Source of the DNA: Catajapyx aquilonaris
Lineage: Eukaryota
NCBI GenBank assembly: GCA_000934665.2
Contig: KZ538199.1
Coordinates: 1-64,000, forward strand
Reading direction: 5' to 3'
Length of the DNA stretch: 64,000 bases
A program made the translations under genes and the position numbers. Below, in pieces: positions 1,826 through 63,848 of this stretch (within the stretch, counting starts at the first letter, position 1; every line of letters starts with the position of its first letter). The notes under the pieces are model-generated. The model was not told where the DNA came from and made no database searches. It saw nothing but the letters and a program-made list of their open reading frames with translations.

Positions 1826-2299
1826 CGATCTCATCCATGTCCAGTGCTTGGCATGCAAACTGAACCATCTGGAGCTCAGAAGTCAGAAGCCACTTACATC
1901 TGGGACAGCTTGAATCTCTTCATCTTCTTGGACTCATTAGGTCGGCCATGTTCCTTCAGTGAATACTCCATCTGTTTTAGCTTGTTGCAGAATGCTATCA
2001 TGTGGCCGAACCTGGTCCGATATGACTTGACCTCGAGTGGTATGGGCTGCTTGCCTGAGCTTCCTTCCCCTTGACCGTCCTGTTTCTTCCCAAGGGATCC
2101 TCCTGGCTTGTAGTCCATCTTGGTTAGCATGACAAATTCTTTGTTGTCACTTGTAAGGGCAGCCTCCAGGATTCCCAGGGGCTTGAAAGGCTGGCTGAGG
2201 TGCTCATTCATCACCTGGCGATGCTTGTTTTGGTCTTGAGTACACTGCTCCTGATGGCGGTGGCGGTGGCGCAGGCCTGGTCTCACATTCTCGGACAGA
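1826..2299 (-). pseudogene. Decayed G-patch domain protein 11 (GPATCH11/CCDC75)-like exon
   Basis: Translation ENVRPGL...SDNKEFVMLTKMDYKPGGSLGK...QPIPLEVKSYRTRFG matches the G-patch pattern (NKGFxMLxKMGYxxGxGLGK...PIxxxxKxxRxGxG) but conserved glycines are replaced (G>E, G>D). A stop at 1894-1896 and a frameshift precede ELQMVQFACQALD, which resembles the downstream GPATCH11 segment. Bounded by acceptor cctttcag (AG at 2301-2300) and a possible donor gttaat (1825). Confidence 0.7.
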
Positions 2300-4007
2300 C
2301 TGAAAGGTTTATGAGATTGTGTTAATAGGTGCCTATAATACAGGGCAGTCTCTCATCCTTAGGCATAAGGCAGGTCCCACCCACCACCTATCTTCATGCC
2401 ACCCACTCCACAATAATTTCTTCCAAGTAAGGAAAAATTGAGGAATATAGCCCCATCAATCAGTGGTCATTTAGTGTGAGGGTCCTCTGCCCATGTAAAT
2501 CATCCTCCTGTTAATCCTCTGCTGTCACGTGTACTGACCCATGAGTTAATCATTTAGCGACTCATTTTTAATTCAATTAAGAACTTTCAATAAAATGGAA
2601 ACTTCTTCAACTCTCTGAGCAAGGTTTATTCTTAGTGTTTGCTCACACTTATACTCCTTTTATTATAGTGATTTGTTTCCCCCCCCCCAAATCACTCTAA
2701 TAAAAGGAGAATAAATGTGAGCAAATGTGGATGTCGGAGTGGCTGGACAGGATCCTGCTGGCCGGCACATGGTGCTCAGGGAACCTGCCACCCTGTCCGT
2801 CGTCTGAGATGGGCAGGGTTGGGGAGTGGGGAGTGGGACAGGTAGTTAATAGTTTTATTTTGACAAGTTTTAATTTAGTTCATAATTATGTGGAGTTAAC
2901 TTGCATCTCCCTTCATCGCTGGCGCTCAAGTATCCTGGCCTTCTGGTTACCCCAGCTTAAAACTAACATGTTGCTCTGTGCACAAAAATTTGGAAGAAAA
3001 ACTGGCCAAGCATCATCTGGTTGGTAAATGTGTTTTAATTTCCTACCACCTGGAAGAATTGGTGACTCTCCAGCAGAACAAATTATGTAATTGGCAAAGT
3101 TGCATGCTTTTAGGTCAGTCATGAATTCGAATCCATTTCTGTGATGGAACAACATTAACCCAATGTTGAAGTGCTTTCAAACATATGTTGCACTGCTGGT
3201 AGAAGAGGACGATTTTTAAGGTGGGCTTCTCTAACTATTGCTCTAAAGCCCACCATTGTTTCCCTACCAGCGTTGGGACACCACAAAACTACAAAACCAA
3301 AGACGGAAATTATTAACCAACAAAAGAAAACACCAAAACAACCAAAAAAACGGAGGTGATATACACCAAAAAAACGCTCTAAAAAGAATTCTCGTGGTAA
3401 GGCGTCCATATGTGGTCACATTAACGACCAATACACTTGCAACCTAAAACTAAAACCTTAAAAGTTAAAACCCAAAAGAATTCCACCGTCCAGCGGTGGA
3501 GCAAGTAGCAACCGACCTGCCATCAAATGATTATCCCCACGGGGAGAAGCCTTAGGAGTAAAGTTGCAATAAATGCCTAAATCAAAGCGCCAAATGAAGA
3601 AAAAGCCCGGGACCTGATCCAGGAACCCAAAGATTCCTCCCCAAACACCACCTCGGCAAGTAGGCGTTGATCAGGCCCAAGCTACCCATTCTCCTCACTT
3701 AAAATTTTCTATATCTAAGTAAAAATTTAAATGCACTGACACCCACACCAAACTATGTTCACGCATTCTCCTCTGACAGAAAGGTGTCAAACACATGTTG
3801 CACTGTGATTACCGAACGCCAGGTGACAAAATTTAGCATTCTTATGGTGAATTGCAATTCGTGGCACTGGGTGGGCCCTTGCTTGTGGGTGACACTATTT
3901 AACCTGGCGACATGTAAATTCTTGCAGCTCATTGGTCGGCCAAGTTGAAAAGTGAGTGGAGCTTTTGTCACAACCCAGGAAGAGTAGTAATAAATTATGT
4001 TCTCTTA

Positions 4008-15581: not shown

Positions 15582-15963
15582 ATGATGGAAGACGACGTCT
15601 TTGAGGACTGCCTGGATCCGGTGGAGATGTGCGTTCTGGGCGACGGGCAGCTGCCTGCCGCCATATCCAGCGGCAGCATGCCCAGCAGCATCTTCGTCAG
15701 AGGAAGTGCTGGTGTTCCAGGCCAGGTCCATCGCGGAGGTGCTCGACCCAGGACGTCGTGGCGACGCGACAGCGGATATGAGCCCTCGCCCGGGGAGCTG
15801 TCTTTTCCATTCTCGCAGCCTTGCAGCCCTGGACACTCCAGGCTGGACCCCATCCAACTACAGGGCGACAGTTCCAATGCTCAGGAGGAAGAGGAGACAG
15901 GAAACACAGCCGGAAGGGACTCGAGCCCGCCCGTCACCATTCCACAACCTCCGTTACGTTTCA
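15582..15963 (+). CDS. BH3-only (Bim/Bmf/Bad-like) protein, coding exon 1 (MMEDDVF...PPLRF)
   Basis: Acceptor atctgcag ends at 15558 and ATG is at 15582 in context GCAATG. Contains EDDVF and RRDSGYEPS. Donor TTCA|GTAAGG at 15963/15964, phase 1. Confidence 0.85.
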
Positions 15964-16035
15964 GTAAGGATTCACATAGCTGGTTCTTGTTCGTTTGGAG
16001 TGTGGGGCGACTCATGGGGTATGTCTCTTCCGTAG

Positions 16036-16344
16036 CTCCAGATGCTGAACTGATGGAGTTGGAGAGCGGCTACGCCATGTCTATGCAAGGTGATGACGAG
16101 CTGGGGGCATGTTGTGTTGGTGGGCCCGAGGGCGAACCTCTTCGGAAGATCAAGCGTGCTCCACCCCCGCCCCTGGAGCTGATTCCGATGGAGCCTGATG
16201 ACCAAGGCTACCTGGACGGAGATGGTCTGCTGGACAGTCGTGGGAGCGACGACCTGGAGGCCAGGAGCATAGGCACCCAGACACCCAGCTCCAGCTTTGT
16301 GTTCACCTTCTCACCAGTGCAGGGCACCTATGGCTTCTTTTCAG
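16036..16344 (+). CDS. BH3-only protein, coding exon 2 (MAPK D-motif and LC8 TQT motif)
   Basis: Acceptor tctcttccgtag ends at 16035. Encodes RKIKRAPPPPLELIP and RSIGTQTPS. Donor TCAG|GTAGGC at 16344/16345, phase 1, matching the next exon. Confidence 0.85.
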
Positions 16345-19300
16345 GTAGGCTTGCATTGATTCATTTGTCGGTACCGAGCCTGCACCACACTGATCGAAAG
16401 TTGAATTTTCCGCCAGTATATAGAGCGCGGAGAAAAGTCGTCACGTCGCGTCGGTTTGAACTTGGCCGGGAAAGGGCCCCGATTCAGATTCGATGCATAA
16501 ATCGAATCAGCATTTTTCAAATATGATTGGGAGGGTTTTCAACATACTGGTCGCAGTTGAAGGGCGTAATGTAACATGGAGATGTGTGAGGGTGGGGAGT
16601 CCTTGTCCCGGCGAAGCAATTGGAAATCGTTTCCATATTGACTACCGCCGCTTTTGAAATCCCCTCCCTCCCTGGTGCAGTGGCGGATGGAATCAGTTCC
16701 AAGTCATCTGCTCCGCTGGGAAGCGTCCCCTATACGGAAAACTGGCACGAACATAACGTGACAAAAAAGAAAACGAGCAAAAGAAGGGGCTAACCTCCTC
16801 GTCGGCTCTTCTCGGCCGCCAGCGGGGAGGGAAAATTTTTGGGAAATATTGCCCTCCGATTTACATTCGAAGTTTTTCATTGAAAAAGAAAAGAGCGGCT
16901 GGAGGGGGTGGGTGGGNGGGGGAGAAACGAGGGTATATCGCTCAGCTCATTCGTTTATGTGGAGAATAACCGGGGGGACATAAATATTCGGTCGCCTTTT
17001 ACGATACGTCACTCGGGAGGTGGAAGTAAATGTATTGTGACTGAATGGGCGCCGGATTATGTTTTTGCGAAAGGGAAAGAGGGTAAAGAATAAAAAAATA
17101 TATATATTAGAGTCGAGATTAGGCGAGAGTCCCGCGAGACACTTGGTCCCTGTCATTTTGTCGTAAACACGAAGTCGTAATTCCAGGCCCAGTCCATCAT
17201 ATCTGGGAGCTGTATTTTCCCGCGGACTTATATTATTACGGTTTCCACTTTATCGGGGGGAGGGGTGGGGGGGGGGGGACGTCTTTTCGCATTCCAATGG
17301 ACTCCCACCAAATGAGCCGAAACAGGGCGCCCACCCCCCACACACTCGCATACTAGACCTCCGCATTTTTATGTGGCAGAATGTAAAGTAGCTGGGTTGC
17401 TCGGATTTGGTCCTCGGGAATGTCAAAATAGGAATATTTCGGGCGTGAAAAACTCGCGAAACTTTCTTGGCTGCTTTCCACGATGGTCTTGCGTCATATA
17501 GCTTCTGATGCGTCTGCTATATGTTCAGTAAGAAAATTATAAATTATAATTTATTATATTGTGAATGAAATGTTAATTCATGTTTTTTGATATTGACTGG
17601 CAATGGCGAAGTAAATTGTTCCTGAGGTTCTTTTGAATCGGGCGATGACAGGACAGGTATGGGGGCTGAGGAGATCGTGACTGCATCCTCTTGTCTGTTG
17701 GAAGCTGGTTTTCTTACCAGCTGAAGTCCACACGTGTTCTTTCAATTTGTTGCGGTTGAGTCCTCCCAATCAGTGATTTTCATTCCACCGCACAAAACGT
17801 TATTAAGTCGCTTCGCACAGCCACGGAACGAGCTCTCTAATCTCCTCTGATTGTGTAGATCCTGGGCTTTTTCTCTCTCTCTCTCCCCCCCCCCCGCCCT
17901 CCCCCTATACGTCCCACCCTCATCCCAACTGCTGCACGGCCTTCTTTTATACAAAAAGTGGCAGGCGAACAAAAGCGGACACTGCCAACTGATATTGGAT
18001 TTGTGGATTGGTTCCCTGGGAGTCGCAAAGACAAGATGAGCCTTGAATTTGTGGCGCTATACAGCTCACGTTTACACTCGTCCACATTGTCGGTGCATAG
18101 ATGATGGCCGATATTTTTTTTTGTAGCATTATGGGCATGTTGGCGTGGTTCAAGAAATAAACAAAATGGGCCTGTCTCATATGCTGACAGTTATAGTTGC
18201 GTAATAAGTTATTTGAATAGTGCGGGCCGTACTTGGCGAACTAACCGGTACCTGTACATTAGATGACACAGTGAACTCGGTGAGTTGTGATCGCTTAAAA
18301 GAAAATAGATGCGAGTTTTTTCACGTTTGAAATGGCTACAGGGGGTGCTTGGAAACTTTGCGAATTTAATTGTGAATTTTTATGGCGCAGGTGGCCCCAA
18401 ATATTATGGGGTTTTATATTTGCGCTACACTGGCATTTATTGATATTGCACTATTGCAATACCCGACTGTGCGACCTGTTGCTGGCAGTCGTTTTAAACT
18501 TCGGCTTCAGTTAGCAGTATAAGCAGCTCTGAAAAATTAGTCGGATAAAAATTATTAAACGGCCCATTTAATTTGAAACCAATTAGGAAATTCGTGACTT
18601 TCTCATCCAAATTTTCACAAAGTTAAGAGGAAGACAACTACTGCGTGACTGGACTTTCCATCGATCGCTGCCAGTACATTTTGTATACAGTATAGGATAT
18701 TTGCATCTGAACTACCTCTGTATCCGGATGACTTGCACTGCAATTAGCAACGCCTTGTTAGAAGGATTGTCATTGAAAACTGGGACACTAACGCAGTTAG
18801 TCGACGCAGTTTAAAAATGAATGAAATTAATATGGAGCGTTCCATATTCCGTGTCAACCGAGGAAGGAGGGGGGGGGGGGTTAGAATACTGCATTATCTA
18901 GTCAAGAAAATCTGAATGGTGCATTCAGATGTCACTGGCTGGCGCCTTCGCATATGATCCGTGTCGACCTGCGGGCTCTTAATCCTGCGTTTTCTTAGCT
19001 GCCCTCATGTCGACTGTCAAGATGTCAGCATCCTTGGAAACGAACAAGGATCCCAATTAGACTTGGCCTCTGATAAGCTGGCTGGGAAATCAATCTGGGT
19101 TTTTTTCTTCTTCTTCTTTCCCATCTACCTCCCACCCCCCCCTATACCCCAGCATCTCTCTCTCTTTTTTTTATGGTTCGACTAGTTGGGATGGGTTTTT
19201 GTTTGCGGATTTATTTATGGGGGGGTTAATTTGGCGTTCGACAGAGTGGTTCGGCAGCGGCAAAAAGAGTCCGAAGGCCCTCTTCAGCCGAGGATAAAAA

Positions 19301-19833: not shown

Positions 19834-22800
19834 GGTTCATACTGGCAATCCGTCTAGGGCCTATTGGCCGGGTCGACCCTTGAAGTCCCTGTCTAAGTGC
19901 GCACTCATCATTTACAAGTACAGTACTGTATCAATGCTGCTTATGTTATGGATACACGCCGCCAGGTGACAGCATGTTACCACGACCATGCCGAGGAGTG
20001 TAACAGCGCCTCTGGCGAGGGCATCAGTCGGTCAGAGAAGCGTCCTTGTTGGCGTTTTCGATGTGTGCTGACCTTCTGCCCCGGGGGGCTCTCACCGGAC
20101 TTGCGGACTATTGGCGACTTGACTTAGAAAGTGGGAACTTTTGTGCTCGGAAAACCAGTCATCAGTGGTGAATCCAAGCAATAGTGGGGCCGGCCCAGGG
20201 CAGACCACGTGGGTTCGGACTCCGGAGCCATGGGTGGAACCAGCGGGGGACCGATACAGTTTGATCCCGCAGATGGTCCAAGCTACGCTGGCGTCGGCAG
20301 AGAGGTAGGACGTAGGAGCCAGGGGCGGACAAGGGGCAAAAGGGGGGGTGTGCGGAAGGGCAGGGTTGGGGCAGTTGGGGGTGGGTGGGTGGGTGGAAGA
20401 GAGGCGTGCAGGCATGCATAGACCAGAATATCAAAGATGGCTGGATTTGGAAGATCAAAGATTGCGGTATTGGTCTTTTGGACCTGGCAACCTTTGTGAT
20501 TTCAGGTTAGGTTTTGGCGGGTTTTGCCAACGGATAAGGTGATTCAAACTAGCAGGAGTTGTCAGAGGTGTTCCTGTACATCAGCAATGCGACTTAACGT
20601 TGTGTCGTGGTTGTGGCAGTAGGCCACGTGCACCAAAAGGAAGGTTCATACTGGCAATCCCGGGCAAACCTAAGTGCGCACCCACCGGCACCCACCAATT
20701 GTACGGTACTGTAGCAATGCGGCTTATGTTTTGGGTGTACGCCACCAGGTGACAGCGTGTTACCACGACCCCACGACCACGAGGAGAAGTGTAACAGGCT
20801 AACAGCGCCTCTGGCGAGGGCATCAGTCAGTCAGTCAGTCAGAGAAGCGTCTCTTCCTCGAGGTCTTCCTGCATTTTGCGTGTAATGTATTGGTCGATGT
20901 AACCCTTTGCCGAGCCCTTTGCGCTTGGGTTTTCGGTGTGTGGTGTCCTTCTGCCCGAACTTCTGCCCGAACTTGTTGGCGACTTGACTTTAGAAGTGGG
21001 AACATTTGTGACTGGAAAACCAGTCGTCAGTGGTGAATCCAAGCAATATTGGGGCCGGACCAGGGCAGACCACATGGGTTCGGACTCCGGAGCCATGGAT
21101 GGAACCAGCGGGGGACCGATACTGTTGGATCCCGCTGATGGTCCAAGCTATATGAAGGCGTCGGCAGAGAGGTAGGAGCCAGGGGCGGACAAGGGGCAAA
21201 AGGGGTGTGTGCGGAAGGGCAGGGTTGGGGGTGGGTGGGAGGGAGGGAGGGAGGGAGGGAGAGATGGCGTGCAGGCATGAATAGACCAGAATATCAAAGA
21301 TGGCTGGATTTGGAAGATCAAAGGATTGAGGTGTTTGTCTTTTGGGCCTGGCAACCTTTGTGACGTCAGTCGATCAATATTGCTTTCGCTTAGGTTTTGA
21401 CGGGTTTTTCCAACGGATAAGGTGACCGTTATTTTCAAACTTGCAGGAGTTGTCAGAGGTATTCCTGTACATCAGCAATGCGACTTAAGGTTGTGTCGTG
21501 GTGGCAATAGGCTACGTGCACCAAAAGGAAGGTTCATACTGGCAATCCCGGGCAAACCTAAGTGCGCACTCAGCAATTGTACGGTACTGTAGCAATGCGG
21601 CTTATGTTATGGGTATACGCCACCAGGTGACAGCGTGTTACCACGACCCCACGACCACGAGGAGAAGTGTAACAGCGCCTCTGGCGAGGGCATCAGTCAA
21701 TCAGTCAGAGAAGCGTCTCTTCCTCGAGGTCTTCCTGCATTTTGCGTGTAATGTATTGGTCGATGTAACCCTTTGCGCTTGGGTTTTCGGTGTGTGGTGT
21801 CCTTCTGGCCCCGGGGCGGGAGGGGGGCGGCTCTGACCGAACTTGTTGGTGACTTGACTTTAGAAGTCGGAACATTTGCTACTGGAAAACCAGTCATCAG
21901 TGGTGAATCCAAGCAATATTGGGGCCGGACCAGGGCAGACCACATGGGTTCGGACTCCGGAGCCATGGATGGAACCAGCGGGGGACCGATACAGTTGGAT
22001 CCCGCTGATGGTCCAAGCTATATGAAGGCGTCGGCAGAGAGGTAGGAGCCAGGGGCGGACAAGGGGCAAAAGGGGGGTGTGCGGAAAAGCAGGGTTGGGG
22101 TGGGTGGGTGGGAGGGAGGGAGGGAGAGATGTCGTGCAGGCATGCATAGACCAGAATATCAAAGATGGCTGGATTTGGAAGATCAAAGGATTGAGGTGTT
22201 TGTCTTTTGGACCTGGCAACCTTTGTGACGTCAGTCGATCAATATTGCTTTCGCTTAGGTTTTGACGGGTTGTTCCAACGGATAAGGTGGCCGTTATTTT
22301 CAAACTAGCAGTTGTTGTCAGAGGTATTCCTGTACATCAGCAATGCGACTTAATGTTGTGTCGTGGTTGTGGCAATAGGCCACGTGCACCAAAAGGAAGG
22401 TTCATACTGGCAATCCCTGGCAAACCTAAGTGCGCACTCAGCAATTGTACGGTACTGTAGCAATGCGGCTTATGATATGGGTGCACGCCACCAGGTGACA
22501 GCATGTTACCACGACCACGAGGAGAAGTGTAACAGCGCCTCTGGCGAGGGCATCAGTCAGTCATTCAGAGAAGCGTCTCTTCCTCGAGGTCTTCCTGCAT
22601 TTTGCGTGTAATGTATTGGTCCATGATTGTAACCCTTTGCGCTTGGGTTTTCGGTGTGTGGTGTCCTTCTGGCCCCGGGGCGGGAGGGGGGCGGCTCTGA
22701 CCGAACTTGTTGGTGACTTGACTTTAGAAGTCGGAACATTTGTGACTGGAAAACCAGTCGTCAGTGGTGATTCCAAGCAATATTGGGGCCGGACCAGGGC

Positions 22801-23219
22801 AGACCACATGGGTTCGGACTCCGGAGCCATGGATGGAACCAGCGGGGGACCGATACAGTTGGATCCCGCTGATGGTCCAAGCTATATGAAGGCGTCGGCA
22901 GAGAGGTAGGAGCCAGGGGCGGACAAGGGGCAAAAGGGGGGTGTGCGGAAGGGCAGGGTTGGGGGTGGGTGGGAGAGATGGCGTGCAGGCATGCAGAGAC
23001 CGGAAGATCAAAGATTGCGGTGTTGGTCTTTTGGACCTGGCAACCTTTGTGACGTCAGTCGATCAATATTGCTTTCGCTTAGGTTTTGGCGGGTTTTCCC
23101 AACGGATAAGGTGACCGTTATTTTCAAACTAGCAGGAGTTGTCAGAGGTGTTCCTGTACATCAGCAATGCGACTTAACGTTGTGTCGTGGTTGTGGAAAT
23201 ATGCCACGTGCACCAAAAG
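19834..23219. repeat. Intronic tandem array of four ~810-890-bp units
   Basis: GGTTCATACTGGCAATCC starts at 19834, 20643, 21531 and 22399, and the last unit ends at GTGCACCAAAAG (23219). The ORF track shows the same peptides recurring (e.g. MAPESEPMWSALVRPQYC). Confidence 0.95.
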
Positions 23220-29347: not shown

Positions 29348-29535
29348 ACGGTTCTCCAGCAGGAGGAGGCCACATGTCTGTAAGCAGCCCAGTTCTTCCA
29401 CTGCCCGATCTGGTTCCGGAGGCCTTCTCTGATCATCGTCGTCGCCGCTCGACGACCCGAAGCTGCCCAGAGGTGGAAGGCCGCACCCTCCGCATCCTTG
29501 GCGACGACCTGGACCTGTCTCGGGCCGCCGATTTG
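29348..29535 (+). CDS. BH3-only protein, coding exon 3 (BH3 motif)
   Basis: Acceptor ttattttcag ends at 29347 (phase 1, G+AC = Asp). GC-rich coding-like island encoding HRRRRSTTRSCPEVEGRTLRILGDDLDLS, i.e. LxxxGD at 29488-29505. Donor TTG|GTGAGT at 29535/29536, phase 0. Confidence 0.88.
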
Positions 29536-40884: not shown

Positions 40885-43800
40885 TATATCGACCTACTGT
40901 ACAACCGTGAGATTTGTTCCCATGACCGAATAAGCTAGTGCCCACACGAGCTGCATAGGAAATCCAGTAAAACTGGCTTCAGCTTGCAAAACGCTGGTTA
41001 CGTTTCCCCCCCTCTATTTAATGCGTGTCAGGAAGAACTCGCATGAATCCTGAATCAGTTCCATTTAGCCTCTTCATATTTTTGAGCTTGGCTTGGTGCG
41101 CAAGTACTATGCATCGGAAAAGCGCTGCTGGTAGACGGCAGCACTTAACCTGAAAGATTAATGCGAAGCATGTCCTTATTACACACGCGTGCATGCACCC
41201 CAATGCTAAACGCAGGCTAAAACGGAGGGTGGGAGAGAGAACCAGGAGGGGTGGGGGAGAAAGAGGAATTATGCATACCCCACATATGAAGGATGACTGC
41301 ACACATACACACGTATTCACATGTACGTCTTCTGGTCCCATGGAAAACCTCCAATGTGACAATGGGGACTTGTGTTTAAATAACCACGCGGGGGCCACGC
41401 CCATGATAAAAATGGGAGAGGAGGACTGGGGGAGGTAAAGTGCATAAGTGGATGGGTGATACATGAGCCTTCCCGGAGGAGCATGTGGAATTACTTCAGC
41501 TGCCCGCTGGAGTGTTAATTGTTCCATTTTGCAGCGTTCGTCATGAGTGCCGTGATGTATGGCGCCATGCAACACTGAGGAGGAGGGGGGAAAATGAGCT
41601 AGCGCCTAGTGTACGGGGGTAAAGAGCAGGGGGTGGAGGGGTGAAGAGAAGGTTGCATGGGTTTCAGAGCTGGGGGGACATGTCGCCACCATGCACTGCT
41701 ATTTATCCAGTGGGCAGAATAGGTGGGGGCTCAATGAGCGGGGATTGTTGACAGGTCGGCTGTCATCGCTGAGCCTAGTTCGGCGTCAGAGTGGGTGCTG
41801 CTATTCGGTTCAAACTGGGGTTTGCTCTTTTGTCCCTTCTAAATTAATGACGCGGCTGAACTTGTTGAAATTTAATGATGTAATATTGCAAGTGGCGTGT
41901 TGGGCGCATATTGTGAGTCAGCTGTCGATCCGGGTGAAGACCTGACGGCAGGGCTTTTGGGTGTCCAGGTCAAAAACTGCTTTTTACATTGACATGCTCT
42001 GAATCGGTCCATTAGCGTCTATGGCGGGAGCAAAATAAGCAATGAAAAATAATTTGGCTAAATGCGAGCCTTATTGCATTTGTTATGAGCAGTTCCAGTG
42101 AACAAGCGCGACGTAAATCACAATGATACACTGCACTATATAGACGTCAGGTTAGGCACGGGGATAAACACTCCCCTTATGCTACTTGACATGAATGATC
42201 TATCGGCTTGATCTAGGCGGGTAATTCCAATCCAGTTTGCGTTAATGCGTTTTCTCTGCAGATAACCGTGCATTTATATGCAAATAACCCTTTTGTTCCA
42301 TTCCTCGAATTGGGAAGACGCACGATAACTTGCATTATAGCCGGCGCGTGCGGAGCTTTTATTGCACTGCACATATCTAAATCAAGATGCAGATTTTTAA
42401 AAAATTCGGACCCGGTCATGACCAAGTGCAACTGGGTGTGACGAATGTTTTTATTTCCCTCCTGGGGTTAGGATGCAGTTGAACAGGGTGCAGCCGACAT
42501 GCTTCAAGCACCGGCGATTTCCAACAAAAGTCGCATGGACAGATTGCAACTTGCAACTGTTACAATTGCTCCGAGCATGCCACAGTGTGCGGCAAATAAA
42601 CAACCGGGCTCGTCCCATTAGCAAGTCATGGGTGTTTACATAGGGCCTCACCCACTGACCGATACCCACCAGCAGATTAACACGCGAATCCGTGTCACCT
42701 TTTTTTCCCCCCCTCATCACATTCAAATGACGAAGGAGCGCGGAAAAATAAAGAAGTGTCATCGGTTGTGAGTGACGTGTTAAAAGAGGCACATTCCATC
42801 CGGGACGCATTCACACGCCCTGATTTCATAGGGGTGTCCTCTCCTGACTGTCGAGCGATGTGACGACGAGAAGAAGAAGAAAAAAAAGTAATGACTGCGG
42901 CCTTTTCACAGGGGGGCGCACAAAAGGAAGGAGAAACGCGATATGGTTTTAATTCTCGATCTAAAAAAAAATGTGTATAGGAGTGGAAACATCTCGTCGT
43001 AATTCCCTCCCGCAGTAATAATCTAAGCTCGGGGAGTGACAGCGGAATAACGGGGTCGCTGGGGAATCCATTCGAAAAAACTTATCAGGGCTCATTTGCA
43101 TAAAAATTGTCGGTGGAGAAATGCTGTGCGAAGGGAAGACGACTGGCGCTTCCACCTCGTAACTCCTGCTTTATGTTGTTCTGTTTCAAATCCTCCATAA
43201 AAACTCGGGGGCCGCGCCATATTCAAGCTACACTGCCCCACAAGAGGAGGGGGGAGTGTTATTATTATTATTACGCCCGGATTTGCATAACTTGGGAGGC
43301 TCAAAGGTTATTTCACGCCAATAATAAGACTCCTGTCATCACAGCGGAGGAAAAGGTTGGCAGTCTGCGAAATTTTCTCAGCTGCCCAGCACTCAGACGT
43401 TTACGGCCGGCATGGTATACGAGTGTGCAGGGGTGGGGGACGACGGGAATGGCCCTAGCATAATCCTTTCATTAAACATTGTTCGTGCATTAATTAAAAC
43501 CATATAGAGGCTGCATATAGCGTGCTGTTCTGGAGCTGCACACGTAAGGATTTGCATTGACAGCGTAATTTTTTAGCGAGTGAGTCATGCTGTAATGTGT
43601 GATGGGCTATATCAGCTCTGTGCGCATTGTTGTCAACCGAGCACACTGTGTATTAACCTCGTATACATCACTGAGCAGAAGGTAGATACAGTGCCTCGTC
43701 GCACCTGATAGGGGGAAATGGATTTTAAGAATGATTTGTGTTCGCCTGCCTGTTGCTCGTGTATACTGTACGTATATGAGGGGATGGTATACTGCCATTG

Positions 43801-62720: not shown

Positions 62721-62909
62721 AACCGAGAGGTGTATAACGAGGATGACCCCCGTGCTGAGAACGGCATCGCTTGGGGTAGCCTGAGCCTGTCTTTTTTGTG
62801 GAGCTTTGGGCGTCAGCAGGAGGACCAAGAAGAGCAAGAGGATGGGCCGTTGCCCCGTCCGCCTCGGGGCCGCCCCAGGAGCCGCTCCGTGGGTGCCTTT
62901 ATCTCCTGA
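62721..62909 (+). CDS. BH3-only protein, terminal coding exon (NREVYNEDD...SVGAFIS*)
   Basis: Acceptor atccttgtttgtcgttccag ends at 62720, phase 0, matching exon 3. GC-rich coding-like island with a short hydrophobic stretch GIAWGSLSLSFLWSFG and RGRPRSRSV. Stop TGA at 62907-62909, followed by AU-rich UTR-like sequence. The total CDS is 1068 nt (355 aa). Confidence 0.75.
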   Translation, partial: NREVYNEDDPRAENGIAWGSLSLSFLWSFGRQQEDQEEQEDGPLPRPPRGRPRSRSVGAFIS

Positions 62910-63848
62910 TCCTGTTGCGCAAGACAGCGGCCCGCCACGCAACCTGAATCAAGAGAGAAAATCTGGCTAATCAGGTGACACCCAATGCCCTTGTGGAGCC
63001 ATTAAAATCATTGCTCAAAAATCCAGTTTTTGGCAATCGGGATAGACGAAAGTTGAGGGAAAACTAGTGCCATTATTTTTGCACATTTGATAGACGTTTA
63101 AAGCACCCATTTTGGTAAGATCCGAAGAGGGAGAAGAAAGGTGGTGCTACACGTTTTTGGTCTTCCGGATTGCGAAATAAACCAAATCGTAACTTGTGAT
63201 TTGTTAGGACTGAATTTATACTCGTCTGCTACAGATTTTTTGAGATAACGTGTATAGTTGAATACTCGAATTTTTTCACTCAGTGATTTACACGTACACG
63301 GTGTGAGCTTGCCTAAGTTAGGGTGCTGAAAAATTATATCCATGTGTACGATGGATTTTTGCTCATAGCTTATGCAATTTGAATTGAATTTGACATAATT
63401 TCGTTCGTGTTTTTTTTTTTCTTCGTCTGAAGCAGTCTTATTTATTTAGGAAAGACCAATTGCACACAGGCCGTGTTTATTATATCATTGTATTTATTTA
63501 TTCGTACGAATTATTTACCGCTTTTTAAGCGACGTTTGGTAATCACTGTCAATTTATGTACATATAATGAATGTTTGTAAGGTCCTGTGTAGTCTGAGTC
63601 TCAATGCGTCGCCGTGGTACTCTTGGATTTACAACTATGCGGTATCAGTGCAGAATTTCTGGATGGAGTGTGCCGGCCACATATACCATATTCTCAGAGC
63701 CCCATTGGCCTTTCATTCCGAGATTAGAGCTGGCAGAGGATTATAATAGTACTTGTGCACATACTTGTATCATACTGGCGGCGCATTGAGACTTAGCATT
63801 ACGAATTCAACAGAGTTGGAACTTCTGCTTGCATTAAGAGCAAATAAA
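62910..63848 (+). promoter_or_regulatory. Putative 3' UTR with AU-rich elements, Pumilio element and poly(A) signals
   Basis: TTATTTATTTA 63438-63448, TATTTATTTATT 63491-63502, TGTACATA 63557-63564, and AATAAA near 63176 and 63843. Confidence 0.55.

Follow-up and report, generated by a model that had tools for sequence, protein, structure and literature searches.

A candidate BH3-only gene of Bim/Bmf type with a predicted LC8-binding site and putative ERK/p38-RSK inputs in Catajapyx aquilonaris

The best reading of the window analysed here, a stretch of 64,000 nucleotides of the Catajapyx aquilonaris genome (GCA_000934665.2, contig KZ538199.1, positions 1 to 64,000 of the forward strand), is that it encodes a Bim/Bmf-like BH3-only protein under the control of LC8 and of ERK/p38-RSK signalling, with a probability of about 0.6. 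The window probably holds a four-exon gene for a disordered protein of about 355 residues, of which the splice joins and the last exon are predicted. Considering the results below, we propose the following scenario. The BH3 helix would occupy the groove of prosurvival Bcl-2 proteins, as in our structural model, and the segment RSIGTQTP, as a beta-strand, would by the motif rules bind the LC8 dimer, thereby dimerising, stabilising or tethering the protein. Phosphorylation of Thr210 would block LC8 binding, by analogy with Thr116 of Bim and Thr72 of Bmf. The kinase input may come from ERK/p38 plus RSK rather than through JNK docking, judging from the D-motif class, FxF and DDVF, and DSG/ESG degrons may route the protein to beta-TrCP.

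The motifs lie in an open frame of 353 codons. Its middle part has coding-like scores in a synonymous-codon model for which 717 codons, taken from six conserved exons of the same genome, served as the training set (null of 542 stop-free stretches: mean -0.10, 95th percentile 0.026). The first coding exon (15582..15963, +; codon score 0.106) begins with ATG ATG, the second of which (15585) has a better start context than the first (15582), and ends in phase 1; the part of the frame upstream of it scores -0.072. A probable in-frame GT..AG intron of 72 nt follows (15964..16035, +; codon score -0.070), with a weak donor (0.57) and an alternative acceptor at 16041, and it may be retained in the mRNA. 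This phase 1 intron is stop-free. Splicing from its donor straight to the BH3 exon is also possible and would yield a product that lacks the D-motif and TQT. The second coding exon (16036..16344, +; 309 nt, phase 1 to 1, codon score 0.119) ends at the phase 1 donor CAG followed by GTAGGC (at 16345), and read-through beyond 16344 scores -0.22. By predicted splicing it joins in frame a third coding exon 13 kb downstream, the BH3 exon (29348..29535, +; 188 nt, phase 1 to 0, codon score 0.083), which has good splice sites; skipping of the second exon would retain the frame and the BH3 motif and lose TQT. In a scan of positions 16400-105959 (89 kb), the BH3 exon headed both the 101 phase-compatible internal candidates and, with 13.0 against 8.2 for the runner-up, the 426 non-overlapping candidates of any phase. 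The acceptor matrix of this ranking was retuned after the exon had missed the first threshold (acceptor 1.13 versus 1.5); with the first matrix its sum would be about 11 versus 8.6 for the next forward-strand downstream candidate.

A tentative last exon in phase 0 (62721..62909, +; codon score 0.040) encodes a short hydrophobic stretch followed by an acidic/basic tail, and polyA-like hexamers occur at 63001 and 63176. It is the best phase-0 candidate within the window, but only third of 245 contig-wide. The hydrophobic stretch is 11 residues long and not terminal, and no clear membrane anchor was found in this exon. Two hydrophobic-looking candidates at 42262 and 36455 were rejected, their codon scores being those of non-coding DNA. 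The protein would comprise 293 residues from three exons and 355 with the tentative last exon, and 71% of its residues are disorder-promoting by composition only. Elsewhere in the window, the large intron carries several near-identical repeat copies around 20000-22900, seen as recurring translations, and a degenerate G-patch fragment (1897-2352, minus strand; PF01585, E 0.005, below the cut-off) with a coding-like codon score is probably a piece of a pseudogene.

The BH3-like motif EGRTLRILGDDLD (29476..29514, +) agrees with eight of the nine defined positions of the 13-residue consensus as given in PMC6124574, and the core L-x-x-h-G-D-x-h is present as LRILGDDL at 29488. Position h1 is Glu, so that the full consensus with a hydrophobic h1 is absent. 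The core was found in 3% of shuffles and 10 times in the six frames of the 106-kb contig, only one of the 10 matches lying inside a phase-compatible exon candidate. None of the exons had a Pfam match, PF00452 being matched on other contigs only; BH1 and BH2 are thus absent, and the chain is largely disordered by composition, as defines a BH3-only protein. We regard a BH3-only gene as likely. A 35-residue BH3 peptide was modelled on the prosurvival-type Bcl-2 protein of the same genome (contig G000:C2545) with a score of 0.65, the best of three controls reaching 0.02, with contact agreement of at least 82% and partner pLDDT of at least 62 across model runs. The score mark was reached by 51 of 78 solved versus 2 of 108 mismatched microbial pairs, and by 39 of 65 solved versus 2 of 126 unrelated eukaryotic pairs, in a calibration made up of pairs without peptides. 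The modelled register is canonical, Gly/Arg of WGR lying opposite Gly/Asp of the BH3 motif. Since BH3-groove complexes have been solved many times over, passing this mark indicates likeness rather than binding.

The initial annotation had described a Bim/Bmf-type switch made of an LC8 motif and MAPK docking sites, and its three elements, RSIGTQTPS (16263-16289), RKIKRAPPPPLELIP (16143-16187) and FVFTF (16296-16310), were all recovered at these positions in one shared forward frame. The candidate LC8-binding octamer RSIGTQTP (16263..16286, +), which contains Thr210 (16281-16283) as its T-P site, has an allowed or favoured residue at every position under the rules described in PMC6607443: basic at -5, polar at -4, large at -3, small at -2, then TQT and Pro at +2. 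Among 20,000 composition shuffles of the 293-residue three-exon protein, at least one match to the full rule occurred in 0.08%, to TQTP in 0.17% and to TQT in 1.7%; TQT by itself is frequent, with 17 matches across the six frames of the window. The supplement rows of PMC6607443 list the octamers CDKSTQTP of BIM, EDKATQTL of BMF, VAQGTQTP of BSN and RSIDTQTP of GLCCI1. RSIGTQTP is one residue away from that of human GLCCI1, a known LC8 partner in that list, and has the core GTQTP in common with the listed binder BSN (PMC6607443). The same source cautions that numerous TQT peptides fail to bind LC8 (PMC6607443). We consider it quite likely that the octamer binds LC8, as the motif rules predict. 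The LC8 part of the proposed switch thus holds up well as a prediction from sequence rules, and its D-motif and FxF parts are weak. According to PMC12811263, p38 phosphorylates Bmf Thr72, and by analogy the chances that phosphorylation of Thr210 frees LC8 in vivo appear about even. Sequestration by LC8, as invoked at first, needs a broader wording: release of the Thr116 type is known for Bim, but LC8 is now also described as dimerising and stabilising Bim/Bmf, beyond sequestration alone (PMC12811263, PMC12017986), and Bim in blood cells is described as free of microtubule association (PMC4695108).

The DDVF at residues 4-7 (15591..15602, +), present in 1.3% of shuffles, is a candidate RSK docking site. 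DDVF is described as an RSK docking motif in PMC11984722, whose table places DDVF of human BMF at residues 12-15 and records docking on RSK in five of five models, and the Bim accession is absent from the rows of that table. A basophilic kinase site within a beta-TrCP-like degron, RR-DSGYEPS (15762..15788, +), is followed by S-P, and a second degron-like motif, ESGYAMS, was found by motif scan at 16062..16082 (+). DSGYEPS and ESGYAMS recall the ERK-RSK-beta-TrCP control of BimEL turnover (PMC6193418), each being weak alone, and the degron pattern has at least one match in 17% of shuffles. The RxRxxT-type basophilic site RRRRSTT directly before the BH3 motif (29437..29457, +) is likewise weak (20% of shuffles).

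The BH3 exon also bears on the relationship with Bim. Exon 4 of Bim covers residues 132-166 in the isoform table of PMC4695108, and its phases, derived from the alternative tails in that table, are 1 before and 0 after, the same as those predicted for the BH3 exon here. From the BH3 Asp to the junction there are 10 codons here versus 9 in Bim (an inferred value), and from the TQT Gln to the earlier junction 21 versus 16. Because phases 1 then 0 are expected by chance in about one case in seven by our estimate, they lend modest support to homology. Family profiles gave no match: BMF PF15185 found nothing in the genome, and Bim PF08945 (Bclx_interact) had no match at the locus. Both profiles were probably built on vertebrates. 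One match to PF08945 on another contig (G000:C599, L005:1495-1560; E 0.83, below the cut-off) has no proper core and was set aside as probably due to chance. The likening to Bim and Bmf gains support from the in-frame BH3 exon, the Bmf-like N-terminal DDVF and the Bim-like phases, and none from the profiles.

No orthologue was found with the first two exons read through, or with the BH3 exon among longer proteins, and no homologue in Atlas, viral or metagenome contigs; one prokaryote locus (39% over 47 residues) was provisionally taken as a chance match. In PDB sequence searches, the BH3 piece and the TQT piece each had one chance match, a search of the genome for paralogues returned only the protein itself in one case and itself plus one match at E 5.1 in another, and no conserved neighbour gene was found on the contig. 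A genuine Bcl-2-family protein of this genome served as a control: searched at E 1e-5 against the same collection of 5.8 billion, it likewise found no homologue, although it matches 119 PDB sequences, so the empty homologue searches say little. With the profiles unmatched, h1 atypical and no orthologue found, membership of the Bim/Bmf family is likely but unproven, and from the sequence features we slightly favour true homology with Bim/Bmf.

The chief alternative is that the protein is BH3-only and Bim/Bmf-like in function but not homologous, its LC8 site, DDVF and degrons having been gained in arthropods. BH3 motifs arise easily by convergence, and short motifs are argued to have arisen de novo in the fly protein Sayonara (PMC10107002); moreover, there is neither alignable similarity nor a profile match to Bim/Bmf, and the prosurvival Bcl-2 protein of this genome has an unrelated LC8-type motif of its own. 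The common order DDVF, degron, TQT-P and BH3, together with exon phases and junction distances like those of Bim, nevertheless exceeds what convergence of single motifs would give, and we consider convergence unlikely. If it were true, nothing would follow on a deep origin of the regulation.

A disordered LC8-binding scaffold with a non-apoptotic role, for example of GLCCI1/FAM117 type, in which the BH3-like string would be there by coincidence or the downstream exon would belong elsewhere, is less probable still. The octamer is nearest to that of GLCCI1, and the Glu at h1 and the occurrence of BH3 cores in shuffles and elsewhere on the contig are compatible with such a scaffold, but the exons have no FAM117 Pfam match, the BH3 exon is the best downstream candidate in the right phase, and the modelled BH3 peptide docks in the canonical register. 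A FAM117 search of the whole genome had no match anywhere and is uninformative. Returning to the Bim/Bmf-like protein, its kinase input can be considered from the docking elements.

The basic proline-rich segment RKIKRAPPPPLELIP (16143..16187, +) is a candidate ERK/p38-type D-motif of the greater DCC or MEF2A class; we take it to fit the class I SH3 ligand pattern as well. The loose D-motif, in the form in which the initial annotation gave it, occurred in 91% of 20,000 shuffles, and the real protein has five overlapping matches in four places; in shuffles of the 293-residue protein, a stricter two-basic form occurred in 12% and the proline-rich class in 12%. The segment matches the greater DCC/MEF2A-class pattern, as do 12-49% of shuffles. 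The class definitions are given in PMC4670726, which states that pattern matching for D-motifs yields many false positives. In its account, longer-linker proline-rich D-motifs address ERK and p38, and JNK accepts only the short-linker JIP1 and NFAT4 classes (PMC4670726). The JIP1 regex had no match in the segment, which, judged by eye, does not match NFAT4 either. The D-motif thus matches the ERK/p38 type, not the JNK type, and carries low information; the pattern claimed at first is present, and the JNK classes are unmatched. A functional D-motif is possible though somewhat doubtful, and docking of JNK through it appears very unlikely.

FVFTF (16296..16310, +), found by motif scan, is an imperfect DEF-like element, and a second FxF (15804-15812, +) follows RR-DSGYEPS and its S-P. 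The DEF consensus is F/Y-x-F/Y-P after S/T-P. This strict form had no match in the protein, and FVFTF has no adjacent proline; FxF occurred in 32% of shuffles and FxF after S/T-P in 10%. As the ERK docking element named at first, FVFTF is weak. Four S/T-P sites lie downstream of the basic segment, so that the kinase target is not necessarily Thr210. The shuffles indicate that the LC8 motif (0.08%) exceeds chance and that the two MAPK docking elements do not clearly do so; the patterns for the D-motif, FxF, the degrons and the basophilic sites turn up in 10-91% of shuffles, and the motifs having been selected after the fact, these chance figures are not to be multiplied. The exact circuit originally suggested, in which JNK docked at the D-motif phosphorylates the TQT-P Thr and releases the protein from dynein sequestration, is highly improbable: JNK phosphorylates Bim Thr116 inside the LC8 motif and releases Bim (PMC4695108), and a T-P is present here, 32 residues beyond the basic/proline segment, but the D-motif falls outside the JIP1/NFAT4 classes (PMC4670726), Bim associates with microtubules in some cell types but not in all, and LC8 has its further roles noted above.

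The genome contains candidate partners for the scenario with LC8 and ERK/p38-RSK inputs. Three Bcl-2-family matches were found, which are read from their sequences as a prosurvival-type, a Bok-like and a Bax-like protein, the last two names being labels that we assume. The prosurvival-type protein matches 119 PDB sequences, with Bcl-xL nearest. An LC8 gene was found, as was an RSK exon with an intact KAKLGM docking loop; the loop pattern had 19 genome matches, nine of which were translated and one of the nine was a kinase exon. The disordered N-terminus of the prosurvival protein carries a textbook LC8 octamer, TDVSTQTE (L002:1933-1956, minus strand, contig G000:C2545), and if this is real, LC8 could bind the trigger and its target alike. 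To our knowledge, there is no such LC8 site in vertebrate prosurvival proteins. Other observations made in the genome were an LC8-like match with two stops, likely a pseudogene (L007, G000:C2934); a cox1 copy split into several frame pieces, likely a nuclear mitochondrial copy (L016, G000:C5905); a mitochondrial-type contig, possibly nuclear in origin or a contaminant, on which a tRNA with UAA anticodon (detected by Rfam and missed by ARAGORN) stands after cox1 and before cox2, an order that marks Pancrustacea; and matches to the arthropod cuticle family PF00379 in 66 of 70 candidates.

BH3-only proteins have long been held absent from flies, and the single fly case reported is convergent (PMC10107002). 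The survey in PMC8998228 gives unconfirmed BH3-only candidates in lophotrochozoans and deuterostomes, and the portion of PMC8336254 drawn on here covers tick Bcl-2 and Bax only. The literature searched, with subscription journals mostly outside it, yielded no account of a Bim/Bmf-like arthropod protein that carries an LC8 site. If the reading is true, a pancrustacean whose genome also has Bcl-2, Bax-like, Bok-like, LC8 and RSK genes would offer a case in which to test whether a vertebrate-style trigger with its LC8 and MAPK regulation is older than the protostome-deuterostome split. It is possible, though somewhat less likely than not, that the protein is the arthropod descendant of one bilaterian ancestor of Bim/Bmf (perhaps also of Bad and Puma) and still combines an LC8 site with a MAPK release site, docking for RSK and degrons for beta-TrCP, which vertebrate paralogues later divided among themselves. 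In the event of such descent, arthropods would have inherited the canonical control of apoptosis by BH3-only proteins, flies would have lost it, and in Bmf the DDVF would be an old putative RSK docking site. A question is thereby raised for mammals, namely whether the N-terminal DDVF of Bmf recruits RSK.

Among known systems, GLCCI1 of the FAM117 family has a near-identical LC8 octamer but differs in that the present protein matches no FAM117 profile. Drosophila Sayonara (PMC10107002) is likewise an arthropod protein with a BH3-like motif; it is described as a coiled-coil protein (PTHR21974) whose BH3 arose convergently in flies, whereas the protein here is predicted to be disordered and has Bim/Bmf-type motifs. 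The predicted BH3-only proteins of echinoderms and lophotrochozoans in PMC8998228 are also long (350-373 residues in two echinoderms) and disordered, with a single-exon BH3; the passages of the survey used here name no arthropod. Bmf resembles the protein in having DDVF within the first 15 residues, a TQT LC8 site and a BH3 motif near the C-terminus, and differs in that its TQT is followed by Leu instead of Pro, PF15185 is unmatched here and the proline-rich basic segment is extra. Bim (BCL2L11) has no alignable similarity and is shorter (198 versus about 355 residues), the BH3 h1 here is Glu, there is no clear hydrophobic tail and DDVF is not listed for Bim in the table rows of PMC11984722; yet in both proteins a TQT-P LC8 site lies upstream of a BH3 motif on its own phase 1-to-0 exon, and the TQT segment here could be skipped in frame, as in BimS.
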